Part shown: positions 1 to 61,395 of the stretch, one piece after another
How the letters are laid out: each line of letters begins with the position of its first letter
Position numbering within the stretch: the stretch's first letter is position 1
Source: a virus
Lineage: Duplodnaviria > Caudoviricetes
Direction: 5' to 3' (one strand)
Length of the DNA stretch: 61,395 nt
Virus record (IMG/VR): IMGVR_UViG_3300020045_019627
Location: 1-61,395 of that record
Notes under the pieces: generated by a model
Database searches by the model: none
Told to the model about the DNA's origin: nothing
What the model saw: only the letters and a program-made list of their open reading frames with translations
Translations under genes and position numbers: made by a program

Positions 1-74
1 AAATGAAGTCGTTGTATCTGTAACATGCCCTCATTGAAGGCGCTTTGCTTTCCTTGGTCTTCAAAGGGGTTCAT
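1..74 (-). CDS. 5' part of a hypothetical protein running off the window (MNPFEDQGKQSAFNEGMLQIQRLH...)
   Basis: Hand-translated; ATG at 74, open to position 1; TATA-like sequence near 212. Confidence 0.55.
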   Translation of the reverse strand, partial: MNPFEDQGKQSAFNEGMLQIQRLH

Positions 75-297
75 TGTGGTTGTTTATGCTTGATTTCCTT
101 TCGTTTTATGCCTAAAACATGGCATAAAGCCGCTTCGTGTCATCGGGGTCGGGGGCATTTATACAATTTGTTTTCCGGTAAAGGATTTTTTGGTGGGTTG
201 CTGTAGAACCAATATATAAGAGTTTGTTTCAAAGAAAACCTCATTACAAAATGCTAAAAACTATTAGCAAAGAAAAAAGTTATTAGAAAACAAAGAA

Positions 298-534
298 CTA
301 TTGCTTCTTGATCCGCAACCAATGCTTGTTTACCCGATCAACATAACCATGAGACACCAACATATTAATATGAGATACCTGGGAAGCACGAGCCACCTTC
401 AACACGCCAAGAGAACCAAGAACAGTACGGGCCTTATGAACACCAATCCGATGCTCACCACTTAGTTGATGGAAAACGCTCTTTCTGCCGAGACGTTCGG
501 CAGTGTAAGCGTACCAGTTAACGGGGTACTCCAT
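298..534 (-). CDS. Small basic hypothetical protein, start uncertain
   Basis: ORF track; last gene of a minus-strand run. Confidence 0.35.
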   Translation of the reverse strand: MEYPVNWYAYTAERLGRKSVFHQLSGEHRIGVHKARTVLGSLGVLKVARASQVSHINMLVSHGYVDRVNKHWLRIKKQ

Positions 535-785
535 TTGTCTCCTTCCTCCATACTATGATTGAACGGTATAGTTCTAGCGATGACGCAATAGTCACAAGGG
601 TTTTTAGCGATATCTATGTATGGGGCAGTATCATACTTGTGACCAAGTACCATAAGAACCACTAACATAAAAATGACATAATCACGCCAGTCATACAATA
701 ATAAGTTCTTGTACCAAGGCTTTTTCGGAAACAAAAGCTCTGGTAATGACTTCTTTGGTTTGGTCGTAGGAATGATGTCATCCAT
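462..785 (-). CDS. Membrane protein with CxxC motif
   Basis: One TM helix; NPCDYC. Confidence 0.7.
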   Translation of the reverse strand: MDDIIPTTKPKKSLPELLFPKKPWYKNLLLYDWRDYVIFMLVVLMVLGHKYDTAPYIDIAKNPCDYCVIARTIPFNHSMEEGDKWSTPLTGTLTLPNVSAERAFSIN

Positions 786-805
786 AAACGGTCACACTAT
801 ACTAA

Positions 806-1774: not shown

Positions 1775-2266
1775 CTATTTTGAAGTAGGCTGTAGACCAC
1801 GCCCTAAGTGCTTCGGTCGCCCCCTTCCGTACTTGTACTTTCCTTCCTTCTTGGCGCGTTCGATCCCTATGACTTGCTTCTCTCGCATGTCTTCCGGCAT
1901 GTAGCAGCTCACCGCCATCTTCATTCGAAACATGAGACGACCGCTTGCATTGCTCAAGTCAACACTGTCACTCATGCTTAAGAGATTGCATGAGCCACTA
2001 AACTCTTTCTCAAGTCTTGCCTGATCTTCCCAATTCCTCGTCAAACGATCTATGTTATAGACCACCACCGCATCAAAAGACAATAAGTTATCAAGGATCT
2101 TCTTGAACTTCTTCCGTTCCATCAAAGGCAGGCGGCCAGATTCTTCATCAGCAACAGCCCACACAGCACTCCAACCCATACGCTCGGCGTAATCTTTGAG
2201 CTTATCCAGTTGTTGCCTTACATTCTGATCATCCGTGCTCACTCTCGCATATAGACAAACTTTCAA
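1775..2266 (-). CDS. Small serine recombinase (resolvase/invertase family)
   Basis: YARVSTDDQ catalytic Ser motif, DRLTR, GIERAKKEG..GRP; TTG start. Confidence 0.95.
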   Translation of the reverse strand: MKVCLYARVSTDDQNVRQQLDKLKDYAERMGWSAVWAVADEESGRLPLMERKKFKKILDNLLSFDAVVVYNIDRLTRNWEDQARLEKEFSGSCNLLSMSDSVDLSNASGRLMFRMKMAVSCYMPEDMREKQVIGIERAKKEGKYKYGRGRPKHLGRGLQPTSK

Positions 2267-2328
2267 ATTACACGCTCCTTGTTTGCAAACAATACCCTAC
2301 CCTACTTTTGAGGGGTTATCCTCGACGA
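2267..2328 (-). promoter_or_regulatory. Conserved site upstream of resolvase (candidate res/operator)
   Basis: Blocks TCGTCGA, ACCCC, GGTAGGG, ATTGTTTGCAAA and GGAG in the same order as at 41993-42053. Confidence 0.6.
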
Positions 2329-2366
2329 TAGACCACCCACATTATTTGGTTATAAATCGAGGTCCA

Positions 2367-2522
2367 TTATTTACATACTGCTTTTGCAAGCGGATCCCAT
2401 ATGAACCAATCATCAGGCATAGAGTAGCGGTTGACAAGACCTTCTTCTTCGAGTTCTCGCATTGTTTCGTGGTATACAGCCCAGGAGACGAACAATATGA
2501 TAGGAACAAAATACCACTTCAT
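2367..2522 (-). CDS. Small membrane-anchored protein (51 aa)
   Basis: Hand-translated MKWYFVPIILFVSWAVYHE...; ATGA overlap. Confidence 0.6.
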   Translation of the reverse strand: MKWYFVPIILFVSWAVYHETMRELEEEGLVNRYSMPDDWFIWDPLAKAVCK

Positions 2523-3852: not shown

Positions 3853-3977
3853 ACCTTCACACTCCAAAACTGTGGCTTCCTCCTGCTGTAGGCCTTATTG
3901 CAAAATTCGCAGTAGTCTATATAGCGAGTATTCCGTGCCATAGCATCACCATGAACCGGGCACTTTTTAGTATTCAT
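3849..3977 (-). CDS. Zn-finger microprotein
   Basis: Hand-translated KKCPVHG...YCEFCNKAY; ATGA overlaps at both ends. Confidence 0.55.
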   Translation of the reverse strand: MNTKKCPVHGDAMARNTRYIDYCEFCNKAYSRRKPQFWSVKV

Positions 3978-4021
3978 AGTTCTTCTACCCCTTTGTACTG
4001 CTTATACCAATTATGATAGAG
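3973..4021 (-). repeat. 49-bp exact repeat, inverted relative to 39866-39914 (3' end of homologous genes)
   Basis: ctctatcataattggtataagcagtacaaaggggtagaagaactatgaa occurs in both elements. Confidence 0.93.
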
Positions 4022-4210
4022 TGCATAGGTCTCGCTGTACCCAGTAAGACGTTCCAGCTGCAAAACATACAAGAACTCATCTTCCAAAATACTCCTCTTC
4101 CTCTCAACCATCTTCAAAACATCAGGATAACTCTTATACCGAGTCATGTTCTTCTTGATAGTCTCAAGATTATAAACAATACGACCAAGATGAACATGCG
4201 CTTCTCTCAT
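3974..4210 (-). CDS. Hypothetical protein, homologue of 39668-39913
   Basis: Last 29 aa identical to the element A gene. Confidence 0.8.
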   Translation of the reverse strand: MREAHVHLGRIVYNLETIKKNMTRYKSYPDVLKMVERKRSILEDEFLYVLQLERLTGYSETYALYHNWYKQYKGVEEL

Positions 4211-5102: not shown

Positions 5103-5251
5103 TCTTCTACCTCGCCGTTTTTTACTAATTCGATAGTTACTCTGACTATTGTTCCTTCTCCATAGTTGAAGATGTCGGCTTGTTCTAGTGGTATTCTTAT
5201 TCCTAAGCCGTTCCCGAATTGTTTTATTTTTGTTGTGAAACTGTTTTCCAT
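5099..5251 (-). CDS. AbrB/MazE-family regulator (50 aa)
   Basis: Hand-translated TKIKQFGNGLGIRIP...YGEGTIVRVTI. Confidence 0.85.
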   Translation of the reverse strand: MENSFTTKIKQFGNGLGIRIPLEQADIFNYGEGTIVRVTIELVKNGEVEE

Positions 5252-5274
5252 AGTTGTTCCCTAAACCAATGAAG

Positions 5275-5322
5275 TATATAAATGTTTGTTTAGTTATTCT
5301 TTAGTTACAAAGAATAATTTAA
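5275..5322. promoter_or_regulatory. Divergent archaeal TATA boxes for the AbrB operon and the helicase
   Basis: TTTATATA on minus strand ~24 nt before ATG 5251; TTTAAATA on plus strand near 5318. Confidence 0.6.
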
Positions 5323-5325: not shown

Positions 5326-7203
5326 ATGGTTAATGCCGGAAGCCATACCACAATGACTCTCTACGACGAAATAAAAGCACGACAACTAGAAGCCGGAATA
5401 ACAAAGACATCATTTTACATATGCCAATCATGTGCTGAAATAACTGAAAGCGCCGACTATACAGACAAATGCCACAGTTGCCAATACCAAGGAGCACTCA
5501 TAGAACGAAGCACCATCGAACGAGCAACAGAAGCACAAGAACAAGTACGCGAGAATATCAAGGAGAGAATAGAAAACAGTAAGATACCAGTCAACCTTGT
5601 TGGCACAGTAGAAAGTATCGCTAACGATATAGTCATCGAGGAAACAAGACAAGAACTAAAAATTAATCTAGCGAAAGGCAAATGGTTACGACGAGGAGCA
5701 GAAATCATAATAGAACACAACCCAATATATTTTGATCAAACAGAAACATGGTGGGTCTGGAACCACCAAAAAAAAAGCTGGGAAGAGAAAGACGAGACTG
5801 ACATCTTAAACCTTTGCCACCACACCCTAGAATTAGTTGGCGACACTAGCATAAGACACAGTAACCTCTTACTCAAAGCACTACAACAAGTAGGCAGACA
5901 AAAACAACCCAAAGAACTACCACTAGAAATGATCCAATGTAGCACAAAAATTATTAATATAAAGACAATGGAACAAACCGAGAGCACACCAGAATATTTT
6001 AGTACCAATCCTATTCCTTGGGAACTGGGGAAGACAACAAACACCCCAATACTTGATGAATTAATTACGAGTTGGATCGGCAAAGAATTACTCAATACAA
6101 TGTATGAGATAATAGCCTATACATTATATCGAGAGTATCCTATCCACCGTGTCTTTTGTTTTGTTGGCAGCGGCAGTAATGGGAAAAGCAGAGTATTCAA
6201 AATCATTGATAAGTTTCTTGGTGGAAACAACAAGAGTAGCGTCAGCCTAAAAAAATTAAGTGGTAATGACTTTGCAATCTATCCACTCTATCGGAAGCTT
6301 ATCTGTTATGTTGGGGAGACAAGTCACCACGCACTAGAGAGCACAGAGATCATCAAAAGCCTTAGCGGGCAAGACCCGGTGAGTTTTGAAGGAAAAGGAA
6401 AGAATAGCTTCACTGGTTACAACTATGCAAAACTCTTTCTTGGGACAAACATGCTCCCCCCCAGTACTGATAATAGCAGGGGATGGTACCGTCGTTGGTT
6501 TATCATTAACTTCCCGCATGAGTTCCCCGAGGGTGAGGATGTTTGCAATCGTATTACTGATGAGGAATATTCTTGTTTGTTAACAAAATGTCTTAGTTTA
6601 TTGCCTGCGTTATTGCAGCGTGGTAATTTTAGTACTGAAGGGACGATTGAGGAGCGTCAGGCGAAGTATATTGCTAATAGCAATCCGTTTAAGGAGTATC
6701 TTGATTTGTGGTATGATCGTGATACCAATAGTAGTGTTCGCTATGGGGAGTTGTATAATGAATATTTGTCCTTTCTTTCTGAGCGAAAGTTACGACGTAT
6801 TAGTTACAAAGAGTTCCGTACTAGTTTGGAAGATCAGGGGTTGGAAATGCATAAGTCTGGGGTTCGGGAGGCTGATGGTAGTACTACGAGTTTTAATGTT
6901 GTTTTGGGTTTGAAGCGTTTGCCGAAGCAGCGTTGTTTTACCGTTTTATCTGTTTTACCGGGGTCCTACTCTGTTCCAGATCATATTTTTAGTATAGTAG
7001 AGAGTACAAACACGATAAAACAGATAAAACAAATAAAACAGGATAAGATGGAAAGGTTTTTCTCGTGGATAAATGATGGTGAAAAGGGCATGCGCGATAT
7101 TATTTCTATAGAAAAGATATGGCCTGATATAGCATGGGAGACCTTGATTGCACATGGAGAATTGTATGAACCACTGCCAGGCTACCTAAAAACTCTTTCC
7201 TAA
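5326..7203 (+). CDS. D5/P4-type SF3 helicase with N-terminal Zn finger; no visible primase domain (start may be 5353)
   Basis: Walker A GSGSNGKS, LICYVGE, motif C KLFLGTN, WYRRWFIINF; CQSC...CHSC. Confidence 0.9.
   Translation: MVNAGSHTTMTLYDEIKARQLEAGITKTSFYICQSCAEITESADYTDKCHSCQYQGALIERSTIERATEAQEQVRENIKERIENSKIPVNLVGTVESIANDIVIEETRQELKINLAKGKWLRRGAEIIIEHNPIYFDQTETWWVWNHQKKSWEEKDETDILNLCHHTLELVGDTSIRHSNLLLKALQQVGRQKQPKELPLEMIQCSTKIINIKTMEQTESTPEYFSTNPIPWELGKTTNTPILDELITSWIGKELLNTMYEIIAYTLYREYPIHRVFCFVGSGSNGKSRVFKIIDKFLGGNNKSSVSLKKLSGNDFAIYPLYRKLICYVGETSHHALESTEIIKSLSGQDPVSFEGKGKNSFTGYNYAKLFLGTNMLPPSTDNSRGWYRRWFIINFPHEFPEGEDVCNRITDEEYSCLLTKCLSLLPALLQRGNFSTEGTIEERQAKYIANSNPFKEYLDLWYDRDTNSSVRYGELYNEYLSFLSERKLRRISYKEFRTSLEDQGLEMHKSGVREADGSTTSFNVVLGLKRLPKQRCFTVLSVLPGSYSVPDHIFSIVESTNTIKQIKQIKQDKMERFFSWINDGEKGMRDIISIEKIWPDIAWETLIAHGELYEPLPGYLKTLS
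6934..7040. repeat. Inverted iteron arrays, candidate replication origin
   Basis: Three YGTTTTAYC-like units facing three RATAAAACA units across an AT-rich spacer. Confidence 0.6.
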
Positions 7204-7514: not shown

Positions 7515-7961
7515 TCAGATGTTCATCATTTCTCTAAAGCCAGGGCTCATCATTGCTATGATAAATAGCAATACCGCCAGTGCGATAAAAATCACAACCA
7601 AACTTAAAGTACTACGACTTGTCGAATCACCAACGTCCCGATAGATATACGTCACAAAGAACGTGCCATTACGATTAACACTCGTAACAGTACCTTGTGA
7701 TAAACTAAACGTATAGTTCGCAGGAGCAGTCAACAATGACCCACCAGTACTATTTTTAATACTGGTAATGCTGTCCAGCTGATTCTTCGTCAAGCTCACG
7801 GTAGCACCATTTGCCACCCAATTAATACTTTCGTTTGTTATGGTATTTGCTTGTGTAGCACTTGTTACAGAATTAGCAATCATCTGAGTGAAAACAATTC
7901 CCAATATGAGTAACACAAATCCTACTACTAGCATCCCAAGCAATGTTTTGTTTTCTGCCAT
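7515..7961 (-). CDS. Putative major capsid protein, spindle-virus type
   Basis: Hydrophobic helices at both termini around a beta-rich insert with N-x-S/T sequons; strong GGAGGTG RBS. Confidence 0.6.
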   Translation of the reverse strand: MAENKTLLGMLVVGFVLLILGIVFTQMIANSVTSATQANTITNESINWVANGATVSLTKNQLDSITSIKNSTGGSLLTAPANYTFSLSQGTVTSVNRNGTFFVTYIYRDVGDSTSRSTLSLVVIFIALAVLLFIIAMMSPGFREMMNI

Positions 7962-7988
7962 TTTATTTTTCTCACCTCCACCCGGTCA

Positions 7989-8288
7989 CTACAGGCGTGT
8001 TCTTTCAAAATACCGCATGACTGGCGGTTTCTTGAATGTGTGTCGTTGTTGCTCATCAGGCGATAGATGATTAATCCCATCATCAAATGCCTTACGAGAC
8101 TGTAGTTGTTGATAATTGTTTATTTGTTGTCGCAAATAACGTTTCCGTTCTTCATTGAGCTGTGCTTGTCGTTGTCGTTCAAGCCCATCGAGTTGTTTAT
8201 CACCAACTTCTCTAGGTCCTAATCTAGGATCGCGAGCATATAATGCTTTAGTTGTCGCAACTTTTCGTAGTACATCAAATACTTTCAT
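7989..8288 (-). CDS. Basic hypothetical protein
   Basis: ORF track; operon position. Confidence 0.7.
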   Translation of the reverse strand: MKVFDVLRKVATTKALYARDPRLGPREVGDKQLDGLERQRQAQLNEERKRYLRQQINNYQQLQSRKAFDDGINHLSPDEQQRHTFKKPPVMRYFERTRL

Positions 8289-8578
8289 GATCGTTTCACC
8301 ACCTTACTCATAGAGACATAACCTAATACTCCGATGAACAGTACAATTAATGCGAGCAATAAGACATCATAAGCATAACCTATGACCATTAAACAAAAAG
8401 CGATAATAAGTGTAATGGTGACTTCTATAGGAGCACGATGTTGTAAGCTAAGATAAGCAATGACTGTGATACCAACAAAGAGTGCTAGTATAACACTACC
8501 AAATAACTCATTAAATATGATGTTGCCTAAGTCTAGATAGTTTTGTGGTGTGATCATGGATTCACCCCACGCCACCAT
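8285..8578 (-). CDS. Three-TM membrane protein (virion/assembly)
   Basis: Hydrophobic helices; follows the adhesin cluster. Confidence 0.75.
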   Translation of the reverse strand: MVAWGESMITPQNYLDLGNIIFNELFGSVILALFVGITVIAYLSLQHRAPIEVTITLIIAFCLMVIGYAYDVLLLALIVLFIGVLGYVSMSKVVKRS

Positions 8579-8976
8579 TCAAGAACGCTAACAAAATACA
8601 TGATGAGCAGCGGCCCGAAGATAAGAACTGCAATCACGCCACCAATAGCGCTAGTGGCATTAATAGTTTGGTAAATGCTTAAGAAGTCCCATCCGAAGCC
8701 AAAGAAGATGGTAGCAATAGGGCCAAGTATCCAGAAGTCACTATTAACGCTACGACTCAAGAAGACGCTCACGACTTGACCGACCATTGCTAAGAGTCCG
8801 AGCACCCCGAAAACTGATAGCCATAGTGGGGTCGTTTTGAAATTTGTAGGATTAAGTGCTAGCGTTAATAGTGCACTATTTGGCGTGTTCTGGAGTAGCC
8901 CGGTGAAATAAAATAATAGTGTCACACCACTCATCATTCCTAACCAAGTAATCATCTTGCTCATGTGACATTCCAC
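8554..8976 (-). CDS. Multi-TM membrane protein (virion/assembly)
   Basis: About four hydrophobic helices. Confidence 0.75.
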   Translation of the reverse strand: MECHMSKMITWLGMMSGVTLLFYFTGLLQNTPNSALLTLALNPTNFKTTPLWLSVFGVLGLLAMVGQVVSVFLSRSVNSDFWILGPIATIFFGFGWDFLSIYQTINATSAIGGVIAVLIFGPLLIMYFVSVLEWWRGVNP

Positions 8977-11995: not shown

Positions 11996-12258
11996 TGTTG
12001 TTCCGGCAGAGCTCTAATGCCAAAGTACGCGAAAGCAACAGCAAGACAAGCGAGAAGGAATCCCGGTAGGAAACTATCGACGACGATACAGCTCATTTTG
12101 TCACCGGTGCTAATGCTAGTGTTGTTGCAGTCAAGATGGTTAACGTCTCTTCCAATGCCAGTAACATCTTTTAATGGCTCAATAAGAACCACAGCGGTAA
12201 TGAATACTAGAAAAGCCATCATAATACCATACATGATAAGAGTACCTCGTCGATTCAT
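11992..12258 (-). CDS. Two-helix membrane protein with pilin-like leader; candidate second capsid protein
   Basis: MNRRG leader, two hydrophobic helices and a Cys pair in the loop. Confidence 0.55.
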   Translation of the reverse strand: MNRRGTLIMYGIMMAFLVFITAVVLIEPLKDVTGIGRDVNHLDCNNTSISTGDKMSCIVVDSFLPGFLLACLAVAFAYFGIRALPEQQ

Positions 12259-33866: not shown

Positions 33867-33868
33867 AA

Positions 33869-50756: not shown

Positions 50757-50762
50757 AAGTCC

Positions 50763-53288
50763 TCAAGTTGTTGCATTACTACATATTGTTTCTTCTGCGC
50801 AAGCGCGTAAATATATTTTTGGTTTAAGCAATCTCCATCCAGTTGTACTGTTGCAAGAGTAATCCGCGAAAAGAAAAATATTGTGTGGTTGTAAATACGT
50901 TATATTATTGCTGAGATACGTCCAATTTGTTGGTGTGAGTAATATTTTCAATGTTGAGTTTGAAGAGTTTCCTGCGCTGATATTCACACAAGACATTGAC
51001 TCATTGATATAGATGCTAAAATTGTAGTTTTTTCCCCCATATGCCAAGTTATTCATCTTAAATATCGCGGTGTTTGTTGTTTGACCAAAAGGAGTTATGT
51101 TTTTTGAAGTAGGAGTTTTTGGGATAAATTCTAAGAATGACACGAATCGTGGGAAAGAAAAATTCCATCTACTGTGGTGATATGTTACAGCTATACTTTT
51201 ATTATATACGTAGTCCGAAGTGTGGGCAATTATTTGAATGGTGTTGTTTCCACCAGCATATTTATAACTTATATTTTTTAATTCTATTGTTCCATTTTCA
51301 GAACTGGTAAACGTTATAGGAATAGTTGTTGTATTTCTGCTTCCATTTAAAAAAGCTTCAACAATTGTTCTTGAAATAACAACAGGATTTATATTAAAAT
51401 CATATTGTAATTTCAATCCAGTGATATTAATTGTTCCTCCGGTGCTATAGACATACATAGGAACATTACAGTACCCTTCACTGTCTTCAGTACATTCATT
51501 GAGAAATGTCATAATCTTTCCTGAAAAGTTATTACTTCTATTGTTACTGACATTAAATGTACTTGTGTAATTCCAATCTTTTGATCCATTGATAACTCCC
51601 ACTTCCATCCAAGGATCTAGTGGAGCAATATTCCAATACATCGCATCTTCATATACAATGATTCTATCTGAACAAGCAGAACTGCACCAATCATTGTATG
51701 TTCCAGTGTATTGCGCTCCGGTAGTATATAATCCATCATAAAGAACACTGACTAAGGCTTGTCCTGATGGGTAAGATGGACTACATGATGCCGTTGGAGT
51801 GCAACCACTTGTTGCCGCACTTAATAATGTGTGCCACGCAGTGCCGTTATAACATGAATACACAACACTTCCTGTACCGGATGTTATTTTTGTTAACATT
51901 TTTGTTTCATTGTAATTCCAACACGATGCGGAAAATGAGAGATTAGTGTATGAATTGGTTCCGGCATTGTTATAATAGACTTGCCAAACACTATTGTTCG
52001 AAGCACTCGATGGTTTTGTATAATTTTGCAGCACCTCATTGCTTGATTGGCTTGAGCTAATATTGTTGGCTGTTTCTTGAAGTGAATAATCACTACTTCC
52101 TGTGAAATTGACATAAGAAGATGTCATATTGGCATTCTTAGGTAATCTAAAATATCCAATTATTCGCGTTTCAGATAGGATGAAGACTGATGATTTGTTT
52201 AAATCTGTATCATTAAATGAATTGAGTTCTCCAGAAGTGATATTTTGTAATAAACCTATATTGTTTGAAAGTGTTCCGTTGACATAAATCTTAACATTTG
52301 TTGGAAAGTTTGTTCCCCCTTTGTGTCCAAGAATGCTGATCTTCAAGCTATCAACTTCATCGAATTGATGAGCACTAATATTAATCGTTTGATTTCGGGT
52401 GCTATTTACACTAAGATTTCTTGTTATGTTGCCATCATGTAATATACTTCTTTCGAAGAAAGAAATATTGAATGACAAAAATGTGCTGAGGTTGGCACAA
52501 GTATAATTGATCCCATAGGAAGGATGAATAATATCTATACACACAACTCCTAGATTATTTGTCGCATTCAATGAAAGAGGACTATTCAACTCTGCACTGA
52601 TGTTTTGAAATGCACCTTGAATAGTTATGTTTACTGTGGTATTTGTACTACTTGCCACTCCGCAATAAGTATCGCAAATAGTGAAATTTCTTATAGTTGT
52701 ATTTTCTCCAATAGAATTGCCATGATAAAAAAAAGCAGTGAATAAATTACCAGTTCTTGCACTGACATTATGTGTGCCGTTTTCAGGATTCAACACTCCA
52801 TCAACATACATCTTCACATTATTGTTCGATGCTGTTGCATTCCACCAAAGAGTAATAGTATGATTACCAACACTTCTTGCAGCTTGTGCAGGGATGGTGC
52901 AGCCAGTTAAGTTGGAGTAAAAACCATATGAGTTGAAATTAGTGTTACATGTACCTATAGATAATCCTGCACCGTATTGATCGAGTGCTGTGTCGTTGGT
53001 AAACCCAATAAATAGATTCTTGCCTGCACTGTATGACACACCAGTATCTTCATATATGAAGGTCAAATTATATGTTGTTGTATTAAAAATTCTTGTTGTG
53101 TAGTTGAAAGTTCCGTTATTAATAGAATTAGTTAATAGACTTATGTTCTGTCCGTTATATGCAAGCATTGTTCCATTGAAATCTTGGTTAACTGTTCCAT
53201 TGGGAAAACGATATAACACGTCTCCTGGTACCGATAGAACTAATTGCACGATGAAGAGTAACAAAATAACAAGAAGAATCTTCTTCAC
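50763..53288 (-). CDS. Secreted glycoprotein inside the tail module (841 aa)
   Basis: Signal peptide, LamG-like KMYVDG, very dense sequons, Cys pairs. Confidence 0.75.
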   Translation of the reverse strand: MKKILLVILLLFIVQLVLSVPGDVLYRFPNGTVNQDFNGTMLAYNGQNISLLTNSINNGTFNYTTRIFNTTTYNLTFIYEDTGVSYSAGKNLFIGFTNDTALDQYGAGLSIGTCNTNFNSYGFYSNLTGCTIPAQAARSVGNHTITLWWNATASNNNVKMYVDGVLNPENGTHNVSARTGNLFTAFFYHGNSIGENTTIRNFTICDTYCGVASSTNTTVNITIQGAFQNISAELNSPLSLNATNNLGVVCIDIIHPSYGINYTCANLSTFLSFNISFFERSILHDGNITRNLSVNSTRNQTINISAHQFDEVDSLKISILGHKGGTNFPTNVKIYVNGTLSNNIGLLQNITSGELNSFNDTDLNKSSVFILSETRIIGYFRLPKNANMTSSYVNFTGSSDYSLQETANNISSSQSSNEVLQNYTKPSSASNNSVWQVYYNNAGTNSYTNLSFSASCWNYNETKMLTKITSGTGSVVYSCYNGTAWHTLLSAATSGCTPTASCSPSYPSGQALVSVLYDGLYTTGAQYTGTYNDWCSSACSDRIIVYEDAMYWNIAPLDPWMEVGVINGSKDWNYTSTFNVSNNRSNNFSGKIMTFLNECTEDSEGYCNVPMYVYSTGGTINITGLKLQYDFNINPVVISRTIVEAFLNGSRNTTTIPITFTSSENGTIELKNISYKYAGGNNTIQIIAHTSDYVYNKSIAVTYHHSRWNFSFPRFVSFLEFIPKTPTSKNITPFGQTTNTAIFKMNNLAYGGKNYNFSIYINESMSCVNISAGNSSNSTLKILLTPTNWTYLSNNITYLQPHNIFLFADYSCNSTTGWRLLKPKIYLRACAEETICSNATT

Positions 53289-53665
53289 GATACCACCTCT
53301 GTTTTAAGAAAGTTACCACTTATCCCCGTACTCAAATGTTTCTGGAAAATATGTCCATTATTATTCAAAATAGAATAAGCATCACCCTTGCGTATTTTTG
53401 AAACTCCTTCTCCAGTATATTCAACACTTTCAACAATGCCAGACGTTACAATATTGTTATCAATATCTCTTATTTCAAATTTTGTTATCGTTGTGCCATT
53501 CGCATATTTCGTATCGTTGGAGAGTATGAGTGAATATGCTTGACTTTCAAGGACATCTCCCGCAGGAGTTCTGACAACAACATCTGCTCCAGTTGGTGCA
53601 GTTGAATTTTGTGTACATGCACTAAGAAGAATAAGAACAAAAAAGAAATATAAACTCTTGTTCAT
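53285..53665 (-). CDS. Predicted lipoprotein
   Basis: Lipobox LSAC after a hydrophobic stretch. Confidence 0.65.
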   Translation of the reverse strand: MNKSLYFFFVLILLSACTQNSTAPTGADVVVRTPAGDVLESQAYSLILSNDTKYANGTTITKFEIRDIDNNIVTSGIVESVEYTGEGVSKIRKGDAYSILNNNGHIFQKHLSTGISGNFLKTEVVS

Positions 53666-54063
53666 GGTTCCTCGCCAACAAGGACAGTGAAAGTAACTGG
53701 ATATTCATCTTGATCTTCTCTATTTGATTTATCTATGTTTAATTTTTCAATGTTGATGTCATAATTATCTCCATCCCACACCATGATTATTATTCCACCT
53801 GTTTTAAAACAATTACGCAACTTCGTACGATCAGCACGATCAACATATCCATCAACTGTGAACCTCGTTTCTATACGTAACAAGTCGATTATTTTTGTTG
53901 CATTTGGCCCTTCATTTCTTTTTTGAAACGATTTAGGGGGGGTGAAACTTACCAACTTTTTAGTGTAGTTTTCAGAAACTTTTGAAGAATAAACAGTAAC
54001 CTGATTACTACCACCTGATCCAATAATGACATTATTAATAATTGTTTGATCTGTGTCACTCAT
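53662..54063 (-). CDS. Putative distal tail (Dit-like) protein
   Basis: Directly after tape measure; beta-rich. Confidence 0.6.
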   Translation of the reverse strand: MSDTDQTIINNVIIGSGGSNQVTVYSSKVSENYTKKLVSFTPPKSFQKRNEGPNATKIIDLLRIETRFTVDGYVDRADRTKLRNCFKTGGIIIMVWDGDNYDINIEKLNIDKSNREDQDEYPVTFTVLVGEEP

Positions 54064-55346
54064 ACTCTCACCAATCTCCTGACATCATCGACAAGTTTCC
54101 TGTTAGAGTCATCAATCATGCGCTGTATTTCATTCATCGTCAAAGCACTTATATTTGTTGTTTGATTTATTGTTATTCCATTCCCACCACTAATTCCACC
54201 AAGATCTTTTGCGCCAATAACTGTATCTTGTGGGCTAAATGAGATTGGTGCTTGACCTGGTCGCATAATAAAATCATTGAACTTTTTCGGTTCTCCACCT
54301 TTTTCTCCTCCTGCTGCGCTGAATAAGCTCTTAACAAAACTCGCCCCTTCTGTAAGTAATCGTTTGAACCAATTTGGGAGAATGCTCCACAGTGCATCAG
54401 CAACAACTTTTCCAAGAGTCATTATGATATTAACCATTCCATTGAGTAGTGCAAGACCAAGAGTAACTGCTAAACTTCCGACAAAATAAACTAATCCAAG
54501 AAGTATATCTTTTAATCCACCAATTGTTTGAAAAAATGCTTTTTTGAATCCCTCTACATCTCCTGTGAATAAAGAAAATATCATTTTAAACAATCCTGAA
54601 AAATAATTCACAAATCCTGAGAGGTGTTGTTTTATTCCATTAATTGCTACCATGATCCAATCTCTAATTCCTCCAAAATTATTAGTCCATGCGAGATAAA
54701 TTAGTGCTGCAACTGCTATGATTGCAGCCGCAATTAATAAAATAGGGCCTAGTGCTGCGATGAATCCAGTAATCATAATTGGCCCAGCGATTCCAAAGAA
54801 CATTAACAATGCGTTAACTCCGAGTGCTAGTGATCCAACAACACTTAACACAGATCCCAACACCACCATTAAAGCTGAGAAAATGCCAATAGCTAATTGC
54901 ACTGGCTCTGGAAGGCTGATGAATAGATCGAATAATGCGAGGAATGGTTCCAATAGCAAATCCATCAACGGAATCATAGTTATAAGTAATAAAGCATTCC
55001 ATAATTCGAAAAAACCATATACCTCCATTGCAGGTTGTAATAGTGCACTAAATGTTCTACTGAGCATTTGTCCAAAAAACATAACTCCTAACATTGCCAT
55101 GACATTTTGTTTAAAAGTGAATGTTGTTTGTTTGATGATGTTGTTCATTTTTCTCATGCTCCCCACATTCGAATCAAACATATTTCTCAAATGGTCATAA
55201 TTCTGAGCTAAAGGCATAGTTATTTTTTGCAATGCCATAATTTTTCTTGCAACTAAATCTGTTGATTTAGAAATTCTATCGGCAGCTTTGACATATGCTC
55301 CATCAACAAGTATTGTTTCAATGATTATTCGTTCATTTACCATCAA
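54060..55346 (-). CDS. Tape measure protein (short, 428 aa)
   Basis: Helical hydrophobic core, AWTNNFGGIRD, C-terminal TINQTTNI. Confidence 0.85.
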   Translation of the reverse strand: MMVNERIIIETILVDGAYVKAADRISKSTDLVARKIMALQKITMPLAQNYDHLRNMFDSNVGSMRKMNNIIKQTTFTFKQNVMAMLGVMFFGQMLSRTFSALLQPAMEVYGFFELWNALLLITMIPLMDLLLEPFLALFDLFISLPEPVQLAIGIFSALMVVLGSVLSVVGSLALGVNALLMFFGIAGPIMITGFIAALGPILLIAAAIIAVAALIYLAWTNNFGGIRDWIMVAINGIKQHLSGFVNYFSGLFKMIFSLFTGDVEGFKKAFFQTIGGLKDILLGLVYFVGSLAVTLGLALLNGMVNIIMTLGKVVADALWSILPNWFKRLLTEGASFVKSLFSAAGGEKGGEPKKFNDFIMRPGQAPISFSPQDTVIGAKDLGGISGGNGITINQTTNISALTMNEIQRMIDDSNRKLVDDVRRLVRV

Positions 55347-55610
55347 TCACTTCTTTTTCGTCTGACGAATTTCTTCTTTTTTGAATTCTTCTAATATATT
55401 GAATAATGTATTACATTGTGCTATGTTGATCGGACGTTTCACAATGGTGTGTGTTTTATGTCCATTGCTGTCGAACACATCATACTTTGCACCAATAAAT
55501 AACTCAACACAGGAAAACTCTTTGAAAATAAAACCGAGGTTTATCTCTTCTTGGTGTTTATTTTTCAATAACTTTTGGTTTATTTTTGCAAAATCAGTTT
55601 GGGAAATCAT
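55347..55610 (-). CDS. Putative tail assembly chaperone 2
   Basis: Position before tape measure. Confidence 0.5.
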   Translation of the reverse strand: MISQTDFAKINQKLLKNKHQEEINLGFIFKEFSCVELFIGAKYDVFDSNGHKTHTIVKRPINIAQCNTLFNILEEFKKEEIRQTKKK

Positions 55611-55614
55611 CGAG

Positions 55615-55992
55615 TCACTTCGTCAATTTGTTGTTATTTTCCTCAATTATTTTTTGCATTTTTGATTTTTTATCACTATTCATATCACTGACTAAAGCAA
55701 TTGCTTCCATTATCTCATCGAGATAATTAATGTCTATTCTTCTAGCTGCCTGCTCTTCTATTTCTAATGAAGATGATATTATTTTTATTAGTAATTCTGT
55801 CTTTTTCCTCGTTTCGGTTTCTTTAGATAATTCATCGAACAAATACATTTTATCCAATCCTATCGGCCAAACTTCAATAGTTGCTCTTTTTTCTTCAGGT
55901 AAATGTTGTCCTATCAAGAATTTTCTTGAAACTATTTGTATGCTTTCTATCGCGTTCATTCTATTCCCCTCCTCGTTCAATGATTTTGCCAT
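55615..55992 (-). CDS. Putative tail assembly chaperone 1
   Basis: Position between tail tube and tape measure. Confidence 0.55.
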   Translation of the reverse strand: MAKSLNEEGNRMNAIESIQIVSRKFLIGQHLPEEKRATIEVWPIGLDKMYLFDELSKETETRKKTELLIKIISSSLEIEEQAARRIDINYLDEIMEAIALVSDMNSDKKSKMQKIIEENNNKLTK

Positions 55993-56314
55993 TTAAAAGT
56001 TTGATAGTTGTTTTTTTTTCTTGTTGCGGTTGAGTGATTTGTTCTCGTAATTGCATGAGTTGTTCTTCTATTGCATTGATGCGATCATGGATAACTTGCA
56101 AATGTTGTTCAGGAATCCCGTCGATAAGCCACTTTAATGTCATTCCAAAATCGTTGCAAAATTCTTTCTCCGCAAGTTCAGTAAATCGCTTCTTCGTTTC
56201 CAAAGGGATTCTCGCTATATAAAGACTCTTTTCCTTGTCAGTGCTAATACGTTGCATGATTTGTTCAGGGAATGGAGATGTTGTTTGAGGGGTGTTTTCT
56301 GTCATTTTTATCAC
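55961..56314 (-). CDS. RHH-like/coiled-coil protein
   Basis: SLYIARIPLETKKRFTELAE...TLKWLID. Confidence 0.55.
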   Translation of the reverse strand: MIKMTENTPQTTSPFPEQIMQRISTDKEKSLYIARIPLETKKRFTELAEKEFCNDFGMTLKWLIDGIPEQHLQVIHDRINAIEEQLMQLREQITQPQQEKKTTIKLLNGKIIERGGE

Positions 56315-56368
56315 TCTTTTTGTGACTTTTCCACAAAACAGAGAGGGAAAAAGTAAAAAAAGAAGGTT

Positions 56369-56983
56369 TTATGCAAACTTGTTGCTTGTGGTATATGCTG
56401 CAATAGCTGGCAGGATATCTGTTCCACTTGCTCCTTGGCAACTTTCGAAAACAACATTCGCAACTGCGCCTTTGTCAAATGGAGTGCATTTTCCTGTGAA
56501 AGTGAACTTCAAGAGCTTATCGCCAGTGAATTCCCATGATACATTGGTGAAGACCACTTCTGCAAAGACTTGTCGAAATGCCATGTAAGTATCAGTTGTC
56601 GCTGAAACAGCACTCGTCACTGTGGTGTCGTTGGTGAAGAGAACTGCAACACGGAACAAACTTCTCGTAAAGTCATTGGTGATCCTCACTGGTGCGCTGG
56701 TATCTGCTGTGTGCATAAGATCATACAATCCTTCTGCATCAGTGCCAGTATCTGTTCCTGCGGCAAGACAATATGCAGTCATTTCAATGGTGAAATCTGA
56801 TTGTGGACTCCACTTTCTCACTCTCCCTCCGTTAACAAGGGGAACTCCTTCGATATCTTTCTCTCCCCCACTAATAGTAATATCCTCAACAAGAGCGTGA
56901 AATTTCACATCTGATCCTCCACGTTTTGCTATTGCCACTAATGCCTTCTCCATCCAGGCATCTTCAACAGGTAATGCTGCCAT
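56369..56983 (-). CDS. Major tail tube protein
   Basis: 204 aa, beta-rich; canonical position; strong RBS. Confidence 0.7.
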   Translation of the reverse strand: MAALPVEDAWMEKALVAIAKRGGSDVKFHALVEDITISGGEKDIEGVPLVNGGRVRKWSPQSDFTIEMTAYCLAAGTDTGTDAEGLYDLMHTADTSAPVRITNDFTRSLFRVAVLFTNDTTVTSAVSATTDTYMAFRQVFAEVVFTNVSWEFTGDKLLKFTFTGKCTPFDKGAVANVVFESCQGASGTDILPAIAAYTTSNKFA

Positions 56984-57030
56984 AATATCATCTCCAAACC
57001 CCTTTCAGGCGGGTTTTTTTCCTTGGGTGC

Positions 57031-57534
57031 TTATATTATTGCTCTTTTCACATCTCTTCGTAATATGCTGTTCAGTTTTGGTCTGGCTCTTCGCCAACCA
57101 TTAAGTATGAAAGGGTGCGGTTTCACCAAGACTCCGACACGAACTCCCCTTGTACCACTTGATACGATCCTTGATTGCAAGCGCAACGTAGCTGATCGTG
57201 CTTGTGCAGCCCATGCGAGGAGTCTTGTTCTTGTTTTCTTTAAGGAAACGTAGTGAGGATTCATGCTGTCGAGTTGCACACCATATTTAGCGATAAAAAG
57301 CCTTCCAACTCTCCCTTTTGGTCGTTGTTCCCAACGTATGCCTTGGGCAAACAAATATCCAGTGAAAGGAACAATTCCTGCTTTCCTTGCAGCATTTTTC
57401 ATATCATTGGCAAGTATTTGCCCCCACTCCTGCATCGTAGTGTTTGAAATAACATCAGGAAGTTTCTTTATTCTTCCCAATCGTTGAATGAGTGGTTGAA
57501 TTCCTGAAACTCTCACTATAAGAACAACACTCAT
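57031..57534 (-). CDS. Neck protein (HK97 gp10-like)
   Basis: Basic; KPHPFILNG motif; position. Confidence 0.65.
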   Translation of the reverse strand: MSVVLIVRVSGIQPLIQRLGRIKKLPDVISNTTMQEWGQILANDMKNAARKAGIVPFTGYLFAQGIRWEQRPKGRVGRLFIAKYGVQLDSMNPHYVSLKKTRTRLLAWAAQARSATLRLQSRIVSSGTRGVRVGVLVKPHPFILNGWRRARPKLNSILRRDVKRAII

Positions 57535-58052
57535 ACACTCACCCGTTTTCTTGTCATAAATTTGATGTTAATACCTCTTCGATACACAAGTGTATTGTTT
57601 AACTCCTCAATTGCCACATCTTCAGTGTCAACCTCTATATTGTAGAGTCCATTTGCCTGGAGTGTGTTTCTATTTGTCGTGTTGTGAAGTGTTTGTAGCA
57701 CGTTATCACTAATTGCATCGAGGTGCTCCATGCCCTTAGCATTCTTATTGTTATATTCTCTGTCGGAAGCCACCACTTCAACCCGAATCATGTGTTCGAC
57801 GATTCTTCGCTTCATATCAAGGCTTCTTGCATGCGCAAACACGGAAGCAGCAGGATAAATAATGATAAGTGGAAAGTTCTTGAACTCTTGCGCCACAATG
57901 TCAGGCTCACGCGAGTATATCCATTTCCTATATTCTGTGCTCACCGTCACAGGATCAGCAACATTCGAACGATTTTCAAGCAAGGCGATGATATTGTTTC
58001 TCGCTTCACTTAAGAAGTTAGTATAGGTTACTCGTGTTGGCGTAGTTGTCAT
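57531..58052 (-). CDS. Putative tail terminator/completion protein
   Basis: FPLIIIYP motif; position. Confidence 0.6.
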   Translation of the reverse strand: MTTTPTRVTYTNFLSEARNNIIALLENRSNVADPVTVSTEYRKWIYSREPDIVAQEFKNFPLIIIYPAASVFAHARSLDMKRRIVEHMIRVEVVASDREYNNKNAKGMEHLDAISDNVLQTLHNTTNRNTLQANGLYNIEVDTEDVAIEELNNTLVYRRGINIKFMTRKRVSV

Positions 58053-58102
58053 TGGTCACTCCTCGGAGCGTACTGTGAAAAAAGAGGAATTGCGGCAAGT
58101 AC

Positions 58103-59518
58103 TTATACATTGCCCATCTGCGGAATACGATAGGAATCCATAATTCTCCGTATTTCTTCAGTATCTATTTGTGAAATATCACTAATTGATGGCCCGAATT
58201 CATTTCTGCCTTTAAAAATGCTTGCACCGATATTATCTTGGACAAGCATTCGTTTCGCCAAAAGTAATGTTAAGCGAGTAATATCGTAAGGAATAGTATC
58301 ATAGCCATACAAATAGAATACTCTGAAACGATTTGGAACGTCTATTTTTGCCAAAAGTGATGCGTTAACACTTGACACGTTACTCGTCATTTGAGTGTCA
58401 TAGATATAGATCTTACCCACACCCACGTCTTCGGCAAACATATCTGATTCCCAAGCTAAAGGTGTCCAAGAAGGAGTTGTTCCCTCTCCCGTTCCTGAAA
58501 TACTCACCACCGTGGTGTGAACTGCGGCACCTGTGGCATGAGTGGCTGCAGTACTACCTAACGCGCCTCTTGTACAACCAGTGAGTGTATCTGTAGATAT
58601 ACCTGTATATGTAATAATTTCCTCATCAATAATAATTGTACCGCTACTAGGGAGTAAACTCCCATCTCCTGCAGCAACATCAATAGAAGTTTCAGTTGTA
58701 TCGAGTACTTCATTGAGTGTGGTTGAGATGTCCTTTAATGGTCCATTTGATGTGAAATAGGTAAGATCGTATTGTCCTTTGGACTCTAAATACTCTGTTA
58801 TTGATGGATATTGTGGGTTGGTGCTTGTACCATCGGTGAATGAACTGTTGAGCTCACTATCCACTTCTGCTTGCGCTCTTGCCAAAACATCTGCAAGATA
58901 TTCGTCAGATACGTCAAACGTGCAATAACTGTATTCAGCATAAATATTATTGGTGCTCACCAATGTCACACCTGCACCTGTCAACGTGATTTTTCCCTTC
59001 GTTTTATCAATAGTGTAATGGGTTGTTTCTGTCAACGTAGTGGTTGTTGCCGCAGTTGTTCCATAATACAACGTGTATGTTGTGGCAATCACATTACGAT
59101 GGTCAAAATAGAATGTAGTGGTTGATCCATCCCCCACACCAACAGTTTCTCTTGTTGGAGAGCTCCCAACATCCCACATTGGAATATCGCCTTTGATCCC
59201 TAATATTTTGACAAATTGTAATGTGGTTGCATAAGAAGAGCTTCCACTCGCTAAACCTGTGCCATCGCTTGTGAAATACCTGAAATCAATAAAATCTGCA
59301 TTATAAATTTCAACTGAAAATGTGATAACATTCCCTGAAATAGTATAATCTTGAATTTCATAAAGATAAGCACCTTGTCTGTAAATAACAAGTGATCCTA
59401 CAACATATCCTCCATATCCTAGTGTGAAGGTTCTGTTTGTTGCTCCGTCGCCGCCCGTACAATCACTGCCCCTTTTCTCTTCAGAACGAGATGTAGTCAT
59501 TGAAATCCTCCTTGACAA
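58103..59518 (-). CDS. Head-tail adaptor with inserted accessory domains
   Basis: YATT, RAQAEVDSELN, YLYGYDTIPYDITRLTLLLA. Confidence 0.7.
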   Translation of the reverse strand: MSRRISMTTSRSEEKRGSDCTGGDGATNRTFTLGYGGYVVGSLVIYRQGAYLYEIQDYTISGNVITFSVEIYNADFIDFRYFTSDGTGLASGSSSYATTLQFVKILGIKGDIPMWDVGSSPTRETVGVGDGSTTTFYFDHRNVIATTYTLYYGTTAATTTTLTETTHYTIDKTKGKITLTGAGVTLVSTNNIYAEYSYCTFDVSDEYLADVLARAQAEVDSELNSSFTDGTSTNPQYPSITEYLESKGQYDLTYFTSNGPLKDISTTLNEVLDTTETSIDVAAGDGSLLPSSGTIIIDEEIITYTGISTDTLTGCTRGALGSTAATHATGAAVHTTVVSISGTGEGTTPSWTPLAWESDMFAEDVGVGKIYIYDTQMTSNVSSVNASLLAKIDVPNRFRVFYLYGYDTIPYDITRLTLLLAKRMLVQDNIGASIFKGRNEFGPSISDISQIDTEEIRRIMDSYRIPQMGNV

Positions 59519-59540
59519 ATACTATTTATAAGCATTGTGT

Positions 59541-59774
59541 TCATTTCAACACCACTGCGCTTATGACGAGGATGAGAAAAGTAAGTGCTGTTCCTGCCAT
59601 CCATTTAGTTATGCTTACTTTCAAATTGACCTTTTCGAACATTTTTCTATCTACTTCGATGTGTTCATTAAGATTTCTCTCTATGAACTCCAATTTATTG
59701 TAGATGTCGATGTTTGTTACTCTTCTATTGACAAATGTTTTCACTCCATTGAATTTATCAGAGTTTTCTCTCAT
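59541..59774 (-). CDS. Small coiled-coil protein with C-terminal TM
   Basis: C-terminal hydrophobic helix. Confidence 0.65.
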   Translation of the reverse strand: MRENSDKFNGVKTFVNRRVTNIDIYNKLEFIERNLNEHIEVDRKMFEKVNLKVSITKWMAGTALTFLILVISAVVLK

Positions 59775-61395
59775 GGTTTCACAAATCCTGTGCGTACATT
59801 GTCTGTAAATCGCACCATTGTTCCACTATTGAATTGTAATACTGTATTTACATTTTCAGATGGTGCTGCAGCAACACCTGTTGTTATATAACTAAAATTA
59901 CTCGTGATGTTTGTTAATTGTGACGTGGAGTTTGCCCAAACAAACCATTTCATTGTTAACCCAACAGTTGCAGGGGTTATTTTGCTGACATTGCTCCAGC
60001 AAATACTTAACGTCGGCCCTCCTTGACACATCGCTGTGGTGAATGGTACAAAGCTGTCGTTGACATATTCTTGTGTGGTGTTCACCACGACTTTTATGTC
60101 ACTATAGGTGATGTTATCCCAAAGTAAGGTGTTATTCCAGTCCATTCCTCTTCCTCGCACTCGCACATCAGTGTTTTCTGTTGTGAACCATGCAGTAAGA
60201 ATATCCTGATCTGTCGTGCTGATGTTGTGAATGCCTGCTGCAGTGATACTGATGTTTCCAAGATCTTGAAAGTGGGTGCCGTTATACACTTCGACGCTCA
60301 CGGTTGCTGCAGTATTACCATGAGTTGTTGAGAGACTGGTATTATAGTACGTCACATTGATCCTGACGGTGAGATTGGTAATTGCTTGATAGTCACTGAG
60401 GTTCAAGGTGTCGGTGTAGGTAGTGTACGCGCTATCTTTTTCTAGTCCAGGTGAGTCATACCCCACCTCTACTTGTACAAAATCCATTTCCATGGCTTCT
60501 GTACCATCAAAATTTAGTGCATGACCGCCCATGCTAATGATGCCAGAACTGTTCAAAATATTCAGAACGCCACTGGTGATGTTTTTTACGGTGGCGTTTT
60601 CCGTCGTAATATCCACTCCAAACGCTTCCCAAGCAAGACTGCTCCAGTTCGCATACACTGGCATGATATCTTCTGTTCCAGTTGCTATTGCTCTTGCGCC
60701 CTCTAATGTAAAGTAGAGCCAGTTCACTACTAATCGATTTTCGGCTATTGTAAAGTGATATCGCTGAAAAATCTCACTATTTGATACAGCACTCGTTGTA
60801 TTGCAATCACTATTATCACTCGCTGTGAGCGCAGCGGTACATTGGCTTGTCACGTTCATGCCAGCAGTAAACCCTAATGCAAATGATAGCGGTTGTGCTC
60901 CTGCTGTTCCTGCGGTGCCATTGAACACTTGAGAGTACGCACTACTAAAATTATAGCGCTTGCTTGTTTCAATGCCTGGGCTAACAAGAATAATATTTCC
61001 ACTTTCCAGGTCTCCGGTTGTAGAAGCGCTGCTGAGGTTTGTTCCATTTGCAAAATAAAAAATATAACTTGATAAATTACTAGCACTTGAGTCTGTTAAG
61101 TTCCAGTACACACTATGAGTAATATTATAATTCGCAAGCGTATTATTTGTCTGGTTGAACCACCATAGTGGAGTGGAGGTGCTGCCTGTTGGTGCTGCTC
61201 GTAAACTTGCACCACCGATAGCCCATACTTGCGACGCGGAAAGACTATCATTGCGTTTTACAGTGGCGGCACCATTTTTGAAACCGCCAGACATTCTAAT
61301 ATCGCTTCCAGGATTTTCTTGATTACTAATATTCCATGTTGGATCAGTAGTGAGGGTAGCAGTAAAAGCAACAGTTGATTGTGCAGTAATGACAA
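59771..61395 (-). CDS. 3' part of the element A adhesin; joins 21458-20339 on circularisation to give 914 aa
   Basis: Open to the window end; frame is continuous through the 121-bp repeat. Confidence 0.8.
   Translation of the reverse strand, partial: VITAQSTVAFTATLTTDPTWNISNQENPGSDIRMSGGFKNGAATVKRNDSLSASQVWAIGGASLRAAPTGSTSTPLWWFNQTNNTLANYNITHSVYWNLTDSSASNLSSYIFYFANGTNLSSASTTGDLESGNIILVSPGIETSKRYNFSSAYSQVFNGTAGTAGAQPLSFALGFTAGMNVTSQCTAALTASDNSDCNTTSAVSNSEIFQRYHFTIAENRLVVNWLYFTLEGARAIATGTEDIMPVYANWSSLAWEAFGVDITTENATVKNITSGVLNILNSSGIISMGGHALNFDGTEAMEMDFVQVEVGYDSPGLEKDSAYTTYTDTLNLSDYQAITNLTVRINVTYYNTSLSTTHGNTAATVSVEVYNGTHFQDLGNISITAAGIHNISTTDQDILTAWFTTENTDVRVRGRGMDWNNTLLWDNITYSDIKVVVNTTQEYVNDSFVPFTTAMCQGGPTLSICWSNVSKITPATVGLTMKWFVWANSTSQLTNITSNFSYITTGVAAAPSENVNTVLQFNSGTMVRFTDNVRTGFVKP
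61275..61395 (+). repeat. 121-bp exact direct repeat, copy 2 (window terminus)
   Basis: Identical to 20218-20338. Confidence 0.97.

Follow-up and report, generated by a model that had tools for sequence, protein, structure and literature searches.

We analysed the IMG/VR virus record IMGVR_UViG_3300020045_019627 as one window of 61,395 bases, which is listed as linear and has a CheckV completeness of 100%. Its G+C content is near 40% throughout, and the number of tRNA genes is zero. The last 121 bases (61275-61395) are an exact direct repeat of 20218-20338, with a spacing of 41,057. Directly to the left of the exact block, a diverged homologous flank of about 220 bases (19998-20217) is 83-87% alike to 61055-61274, and the likeness then ends. 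The contig is composed of an arm (1-20217), a loop (20218-61274) and one repeated 121-base word, at which the assembly path would re-enter the loop. When 61274 is closed to 20218, a circle of 41,057 bp is obtained, and a gene cut by the end of the contig, called here gene B, becomes a frame of 914 amino acids (aa) with a signal peptide and no internal stops. A circle formed by the whole contig was rejected. The end and the start of the contig have no terminal overlap, and joining 61395 to 1 lengthens the gene B frame by 24 codons only and does not restore the gene.

The head and tail genes of the circle, recognised with PHROG, lie at 24.4-34.2 kb and 48.6-59.5 kb. On the minus strand are the terminase large subunit (29309-30898; PHROG 2.9e-34), the portal protein (27054-28526; 2.8e-18) and the major capsid protein, which forms the C-terminal half of a product with a fused N-terminal region (25036-27057; PHROG major head protein, 4.2e-6). 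PF17236 was recorded for the capsid protein and PF05065 for its relatives, on which we class it as an HK97-type capsid. It had no match in deposited phage records, and a scan of genome contigs with the capsid alignment gave none. The neck and tail module (49287-59518, minus strand) encodes a conserved structural protein of 471 aa, a 173-aa protein, a tail completion protein (167 aa), a 204-aa protein, the tape measure (54060-55346; 2.6e-16) and tail proteins of 841 and 489 aa; the tail protein match was 2.3e-12 and the Neck1/tail completion match 4.5e-5. No sheath gene was recognised in the circle. For replication, the circle has a 703-aa helicase with a weak MCM/AAA match (43684-45795, plus strand), which is kept in the relatives and for which neither the PDB nor NCBIfam gave a match. 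An AAA ATPase is also encoded.

A search with the capsid half found 123 relatives, 120 of which were listed, one being the window's own protein. Among the 119 others listed, 24 are on contigs of at least 35 kb; 23 of these contigs are 35.1-46.8 kb long and one is 56.3 kb. Four of the capsid relatives are in IMG/VR: G001 (43,560 bp, 127-bp terminal repeat, 100% complete), G002 (42,558 bp, 96% complete) and fragments of 26.1 kb (59% complete) and 14.8 kb (33%). The ratings of the two fragments point to an expected family size of about 44 kb. The open reading frames (ORFs) of at least 60 aa from all six frames of the window were compared with the three relatives G001-G003 by tblastn (E<=1e-5). 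The matches span 24425-59518 and include genes of the head, the neck, the tail and replication, with identities of 29-57% (capsid 51-56%, portal 55-57%). None of the ORFs from 1-24413 matched these relatives at this threshold. The G+C content of G001, G002 and G003 is 55%, 41% and 31%, and the family thus appears to span hosts of very different base composition.

In these three relatives, an unrelated variable slot of 2.4-5.5 kb comes after the head genes; the gene for the 471-aa homolog is next, and the tail genes follow. In the window, this order appears only once the circle is closed. The closed circle resembles G001 and G002, which are uncultured viruses with a PF17236 SU10-type capsid, in size and in having the terminase, portal, capsid, 471-aa, neck, tape measure, tail and helicase genes in the same order. 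It differs from them in that the proteins encoded in its slot are two orphans, of 976 and 914 aa, and in that the stretch at about 39.0-43.7 kb, with a recombinase and genes in common with the arm, is absent from the relatives. The slot of G002 holds membrane-anchored, lectin-repeat and N/S/T-rich secreted proteins, so the 976-aa orphan and gene B are apparently of the kind normally found there. Another difference concerns three genes of 105-109 aa. In G001 and G002 they come directly after the genes for the capsid and a 93-aa protein, and in the window (33169-34186) they lie upstream of the terminase region, which is a local rearrangement of the head module. The preliminary description of the window had proposed that 20218-61395 closes as a 41,057-bp circle with a full head-tail gene set. 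The exact repeat, the restored 914-aa ORF and the matched head and tail genes agree with this, and together with the gene order of G001 and G002 they support the circle (20218-61274) as a self-contained and complete tailed-virus genome, circular or circularly permuted.

Alternatively, the record could be a single genome of about 62 kb. It would have a pair of paralogous surface-protein genes, the contig would end in the second of them, and there would be no 41-kb circle. The linear class in IMG/VR and the CheckV completeness of 100% agree with this, and assemblers do break at repeats. However, 20 kb with replication genes would then stand between the head and tail modules, which is not the arrangement of G001 and G002. 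Such a genome would carry a second recombinase and a second copy of small early genes, and its size would be far outside the range of the family. In addition, an exact 121-bp overlap is what a closed loop in the assembly graph gives, and end overlaps of similar length are seen in G001 (127 bp) and in L018, a metagenome contig considered below (123 bp). We therefore regard a single genome as the least probable of the explanations weighed here.

The absence of any match between its ORFs and the three relatives shows the arm to be foreign to the tailed-virus family, and we read it as a 20.2-kb fragment of a second mobile element. It encodes a P4-family primase with a D5-like SF3 helicase (5326-7203, plus strand), which matches the PHROG DNA primase (5.5e-63) and Pfam D5_N and DUF5906, and scores 118.6 bits against NCBIfam TIGR01613, for which the cutoff is 108.7; on this score it is assigned to the P4 family. 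No relative of it was found in a scan of viral contigs. A small serine recombinase of 163 aa (1775-2266, minus strand; Pfam Resolvase, 7e-27) and MazE/AbrB-like and YbjQ-like proteins are also encoded. A long run of minus-strand genes encodes, in order, proteins of 1433, 113, 102, 120, 891, 140, 97, 99 and 148 aa. The 891-aa product (8961-11636) is a secreted protein with a signal peptide, a ConA-like lectin domain (Pfam Laminin_G_3, 4.9e-18), a chain of beta-sandwiches and three C-terminal membrane helices. Three of the four small proteins encoded after it (140, 97, 99 and 148 aa; 7515-8976) are multi-pass or hairpin membrane proteins. The three small genes before it (11633-12596) encode a 120-aa protein with a signal peptide, an HExxH motif and a weak zincin-like match, a 102-aa two-helix membrane hairpin and a basic 113-aa protein. 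According to a crude hydrophobicity scan, 14 of the 33 ORFs of the arm have a hydrophobic segment, versus 13 of 61 in the circle.

None of the small membrane proteins of the arm matched a Pfam or PHROG family or a hallmark protein, and these two libraries revealed no gene for a capsid, portal or terminase in the 20 kb of the arm. The separate helicase, resolvase and membrane-type virion module described previously are thus present as a primase-helicase, a recombinase and membrane-protein genes, and no hallmark virion family is among them. We also considered a provirus in a chromosome as the source of the arm, and rejected it: the arm has no tRNA, and its nameable genes are all mobile-element genes.

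The join between the arm and the loop lies within a gene. Gene A (19224-21458, minus strand) encodes an N/S/T-rich protein of 744 aa with a lipoprotein-like signal peptide, and spans the join. Its counterpart at the other end of the contig, the C-terminal 540 aa of gene B (59771-61395, minus strand), is open-ended and appears as an alternative end of the same gene. After closure, residues 1-400 of the two products are identical; the following parts are about 90% and then 65% alike, and from residue 500 the sequences are unrelated, until a 33% match reappears over the last 122 aligned columns. Over 118 aa, the C-terminal part of gene B has 86% identity to gene A. The two homologous genes are on the minus strand, and the join keeps their frame and leaves gene A intact; the identity falls from 100% by way of about 90% and 80% to none. 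Homologs of gene A were not found in a scan of viral contigs, and a word-index search among 5.8 billion proteins returned only gene A itself. The join sits where the homologous genes turn identical; at such a point, both a crossing by the assembler and a real homologous recombination can explain the contig.

Invertible phage genes of the Mu Gin and P1 Cin type also have alternative C-terminal segments, which are oppositely oriented inside a short invertible segment. A switch of this type was rejected for genes A and B, the alternative ends of which are in direct orientation and 41 kb apart.

The arm and the circle match elsewhere too, far beyond chance. Two exact blocks are present in inverted orientation, 2517-2662 = 40654-40799 (146 bp) and 3973-4021 = 39866-39914 (49 bp), and these are the only exact words of at least 25 bases common to 1-20217 and the rest. 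The limits of the 146-bp block are nearly those of a 48-aa gene on the minus strand (2519-2665). The other block, of 49 bp, forms the 3' end of a 78-aa gene (3973-4210, minus strand), the remainder of which has 66% protein identity to an 81-aa gene of the circle. The circle copies of these small genes (81 and 53 aa), including both blocks, lie at 39668-40799 on the plus strand. Exact words of the 146-bp and 121-bp blocks had no match in viral or metagenome contigs, in which neither junction turned up a second time, and a scan of viral contigs with the 48-aa protein gave one 10-residue match only, which we took as chance. The 146-bp block is longer than the 121-bp overlap, so it marks a second path choice of the assembler, on which the assignment of 1-2516 to the arm depends.

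Beside these genes, both parts of the contig encode a small serine recombinase. The circle copy (42027-42551, plus strand) lies in the stretch of about 39.0-43.7 kb without a homolog in the relatives. It is 31% identical to the arm copy in an alignment over 150 residues that includes the 'LYARVS' motif. A conserved site lies upstream of the arm recombinase (2282-2400, minus strand) and in the same place in the circle. Its mean column identity is 74% in a 149-column alignment that includes end gaps, with about 110 nucleotides aligned in both, and ATTGTTTGCAAA is present exactly at 2282-2293 (minus strand) and 42026-42037 (plus strand). In the regions 2255-2300 and 42026-42075, both recombinases most likely start at a TTG shortly after a GGAG(G) box. 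These starts yield 'MKVCLYARVS' and 'MRIALYARVS', and the longer ORF listed for the circle copy probably starts too early.

Thus, the exact blocks of 121, 146 and 49 bp and the conserved site upstream of the resolvase, reported from the first inspection of the window, are all there. The regions of the circle that are common to the arm lie in stretches absent from the relatives, namely the head-tail slot and the region of about 39.0-43.7 kb. Tracts of 100% identity at three loci, inside diverged or unrelated sequence, point to recent recombination between the two elements. Such recombination would mean that the elements live in the same cells. The claim of a very recent exchange, valid even if the join is artefactual, holds to this extent: the three loci with identical tracts stand whichever way the join falls.

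What molecule or molecules the contig represents can be weighed on this basis. A dead-end branch that enters a closed loop of a de Bruijn graph gives a loop-with-tail contig, with an overlap of k-mer length. The window resembles such chimeric contigs in its end overlap, which has the length of a k-mer, and in its entry point in a repeat common to two genomes, this shape being read from the contig only. We consider it somewhat probable, and the likeliest of the readings, that two co-resident replicons were merged by the assembler at a common sequence, and that the contig is not one genome. The loop (20218-61274) would be the complete genome of a long-tailed virus, from a family with complete members of about 42-44 kb. 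The tail of the graph (1-20217) would be a fragment of a second, unrelated mobile element living in the same cells, with its own P4-type primase-helicase, small serine recombinase and envelope-like gene block, the latter encoding the membrane-anchored multi-Ig lectin protein, several small proteins with multiple membrane passes and the basic 1433-aa protein. This gene content suggests that the arm is probably from a non-tailed virus or a vesicle-forming, plasmid-like element. Each of the two would hold a diverged copy of the gene for a secreted, lipoprotein-like surface protein. Recent homologous recombination may have made the copies identical over 121 or more bases, and the assembler may have passed through this tract from one element to the other. 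A similar recent exchange could have left the identical 48-aa gene and the 49-bp gene end in the early regions, beside the related recombinases. We infer that the join is an assembly-graph path, that the host is common and that the arm encodes a virion; the shape of the graph is deduced from the contig alone.

Several observations weigh against a merger by the assembler. The intact ORF across the join is also expected from a real recombinant. The loop has no exit, although one would be expected if the arm's copy of the gene became different beyond this point. The arm is only a fragment, with no more than candidate virion genes. Tetranucleotide usage separates the two parts weakly, with a correlation (r) of 0.91 within the circle (n=10), 0.84 within the arm (n=3) and 0.79 between the arm and the circle (n=15); part of this separation is due to N/S/T-rich genes, and it is suggestive only.

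It is also possible, though we think it doubtful, that the contig is a real cointegrate or recombinant, formed through the surface-protein gene or by the serine recombinases, in which case arm-bearing molecules would be present beside free 41-kb circles. The three loci of 100% identity show that recombination between the elements happens. Gene A is intact, and a single crossover between two circles gives exactly such a hybrid gene. Both parts also carry a small serine recombinase with the conserved upstream site. However, a cointegrate or an insertion needs a second junction. The left end of the arm, including its first 121 bases, has no word of at least 25 bases in common with the circle, so that no such junction is present, and gene B is not restored by closing 61395 to 1. 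The join is away from the recombinase-associated sites. Finally, 61 kb is 1.4 times the size of the complete relatives, and a genome of this length would probably overfill a capsid for about 42-44 kb.

If two replicons were merged by the assembler, the second may still depend on the first. Satellite phage P4 with its helper P2 is a known system of this kind. The arm is like P4 in having a P4-family primase-helicase, with a C-terminal primase domain above the curated cutoff, and no capsid, portal or terminase gene in its 20 kb, next to a complete tailed virus. It is unlike P4 in having a large block of membrane-protein genes and no recognised P4-type integrase, capsid-size or helper-control genes. 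A satellite or hitch-hiker with its own primase and helper-dependent spread, having regulators and a surface or adhesin gene in common with its helper, would fit the identical or similar small early genes and the recombinase-upstream site that the arm shares with its putative helper. Plasmid-derived satellites of archaeal spindle viruses are described in bioRxiv 10.1101/2025.02.15.638363, together with the exchange of genes among groups of archaeal viruses. However, membrane and secreted proteins that a capsid-borrowing satellite would not need take up about 10 kb of the arm, and P4-type primases are common in plasmids and ordinary phages. In addition, the arm is a fragment in which neither a packaging signal nor a helper-responsive gene was recognised. 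This explanation overlaps with that of two merged replicons, and we judge it to be quite unlikely.

The 891-aa protein of the arm allowed us to look for similar elements. Its AlphaFold2 model, built from a 60-sequence alignment, has a mean pLDDT of 77.7 and values above 90 for most of residues 260-780. In Foldseek, the model gave generic multi-Ig matches only, with TM-scores of at most 0.23. At E<=0.001 the family counts 2,601 library representatives, and at E<=1e-30 it counts 66. The protein had no match in deposited phages, plasmids, species-representative genomes or, by sequence, the PDB. The contigs of the ten closest clusters are 2.3-29.1 kb long. At seven distant metagenome loci with a homolog of the 891-aa protein, no other protein matches the window. 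In two loci, L018 and L023, the homolog is followed by membrane proteins of 142 and 99/100 aa, which mirrors the 140- and 97-aa proteins of the arm.

L018 is a contig of 14,204 bp with a G+C content of 30%, and its terminal overlap of 123 bp indicates a closed circle of 14.1 kb. It encodes a DnaA-like ATPase (PHROG 1.1e-7) with a helix-turn-helix and two tandem helix-hairpin membrane proteins of 89 and 115 aa. No tailed-virus gene was found among the 10 ORFs scanned. L018 may be a small non-tailed virus. It is like the arm in having a distant homolog of the 891-aa protein (26% identical, with the same lectin domain and membrane-helix tail) and a large basic protein upstream of it. It is unlike the arm in its lower G+C content (30% versus 40%), and no other gene is detectably homologous; its DnaA-like ATPase and tandem helix-hairpin proteins are not recognisable in the arm. 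The arm thus resembles L018 in the arrangement of its genes and not in a homologous capsid, and this arrangement is the sole support for a putative non-tailed, membrane-type particle of the arm.

Spindle-shaped viruses of archaea (Fuselloviridae, Halspiviridae and Thaspiviridae) have a DnaA-like ATPase and a tyrosine integrase, or a protein-primed polymerase. None of the replication and integration genes typical of them was found in the 20 kb of the arm, which is itself incomplete. For their small, hydrophobic capsid proteins we used the helix-hairpin criterion of PMC10866085. Several hairpin membrane proteins are present in the arm, and none matches a Pfam or PHROG family. For the 102-aa candidate, a single-sequence AlphaFold2 model showed two helices at a pLDDT of 64, which is too weak for a structure search. 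The initial assignment of the arm to a spindle-type virus was not supported: the arm has no Pfam or PHROG hallmark, and the fold of the 891-aa protein is a generic string of Ig-like domains.

In the Pleolipoviridae, a spike with a signal peptide and a C-terminal membrane anchor is encoded ahead of an NTPase and small membrane proteins. The domain layout of the 891-aa protein agrees with this pattern, as do the membrane proteins encoded after it, with no sequence or fold match to a known spike. The NTPase of the pattern was not found in the arm, which is a fragment. A pleomorphic virus, a vesicle-forming plasmid or a satellite suits the arm equally as well as a spindle virus.

The host was previously taken to be an archaeon. 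There are hints of this, although it is unproven: the weak MCM-like match of the circle helicase, the best isolate match of the terminase, which is to the haloarchaeal Halogranum tailed virus 1 at 22.6% identity, and the promoter and terminator counts. In the arm there are 44 sigma-70 promoters versus 52.9 expected and 16 intrinsic terminators versus 13.6 expected, which is no excess. An abundance of N-x-S/T motifs is no dependable sign of an archaeon, since a tail protein of the circle is equally rich in them. A hypersaline salt-in host was rejected, since the proteins are not acidic. Seven TTTATATA boxes were found versus 4.1 expected, which is not significant. One TTTATATA box, at 5251-5282 (minus strand), lies 24 bases upstream of the ATG of the leftward operon of the arm, and would suit an archaeal leaderless transcript.

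The basic, low-complexity 1433-aa protein of the arm (12587-16888, minus strand) is an orphan, with no relative in the scan of viral contigs. A word-index homolog search gave only the window's own protein, and the best score in the ESM Atlas, 0.77, is below a meaningful level. At 15914-16069, its gene has two 54-base copies, 91% alike and 102 bases apart, which encode a repeated 'FGQKIIEDA'-type motif. The secreted 976-aa protein in the variable slot of the circle (21483-24413, minus strand) is made in part of 56-aa tandem repeats of the form '...NITTANISQLNVGTTNLTT.QI.E..NLYFTS.RAGDAVGN...'; in its gene, 21838-22575 contains at least four tandem copies of a 168-base unit that are 63-72% alike. 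The 841-aa tail protein (50763-53288) has a hydrophobic start and 62 N-x-S/T motifs, or 7.4 per 100 aa. It is as rich in these motifs as the secreted proteins, so motif density alone is no marker of secretion here. At 41423-41827, a 134-aa product carries the repeat 'HETQETHETQETIET' following a membrane helix.

The closest precedent is a pair of viruses described in PMC13612827. The spindle-shaped Tebi-SV1 and the pleomorphic Tebi-PV1 co-infect one Halorubrum strain and share an integrase and small proteins without assigned function, and ahead of the recombinase operon both have a conserved non-coding region with 88% identity. The arm and the circle resemble this pair in that unrelated types of element share a recombinase type, small proteins and a recombinase-upstream region. 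They differ from it in that one partner is tailed, the small serine recombinases are only 31% identical, and a surface-protein gene is also common to both. A further difference is that co-infection is deduced here from identical DNA and that the element of the arm is only putatively viral. In a limited literature search, we found no tailed virus that shares a surface-protein gene with a non-tailed element.

If the join is merely an assembly path, a record listed as a 61-kb virus that is 100% complete would consist of one complete 41-kb genome and a foreign fragment, and would be a caution to users of the database. Through its 891-aa protein, the arm also gives a view of membrane-anchored multi-Ig proteins as a widespread family that is still undescribed; their genomic homes appear to be small non-tailed elements. 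A broader picture, which we offer as unlikely and speculative, is that an undescribed envelope-type (non-tailed) virus or satellite and a tailed virus, both living in one host that is probably an archaeon, have a common surface or adhesin gene and occasionally form a cointegrate, so that host-recognition and regulatory genes would move between realms. In any of these cases, the identical DNA in the surface-protein gene and in the early genes shows that genes pass between mobile elements of very different kinds in an uncultured host.

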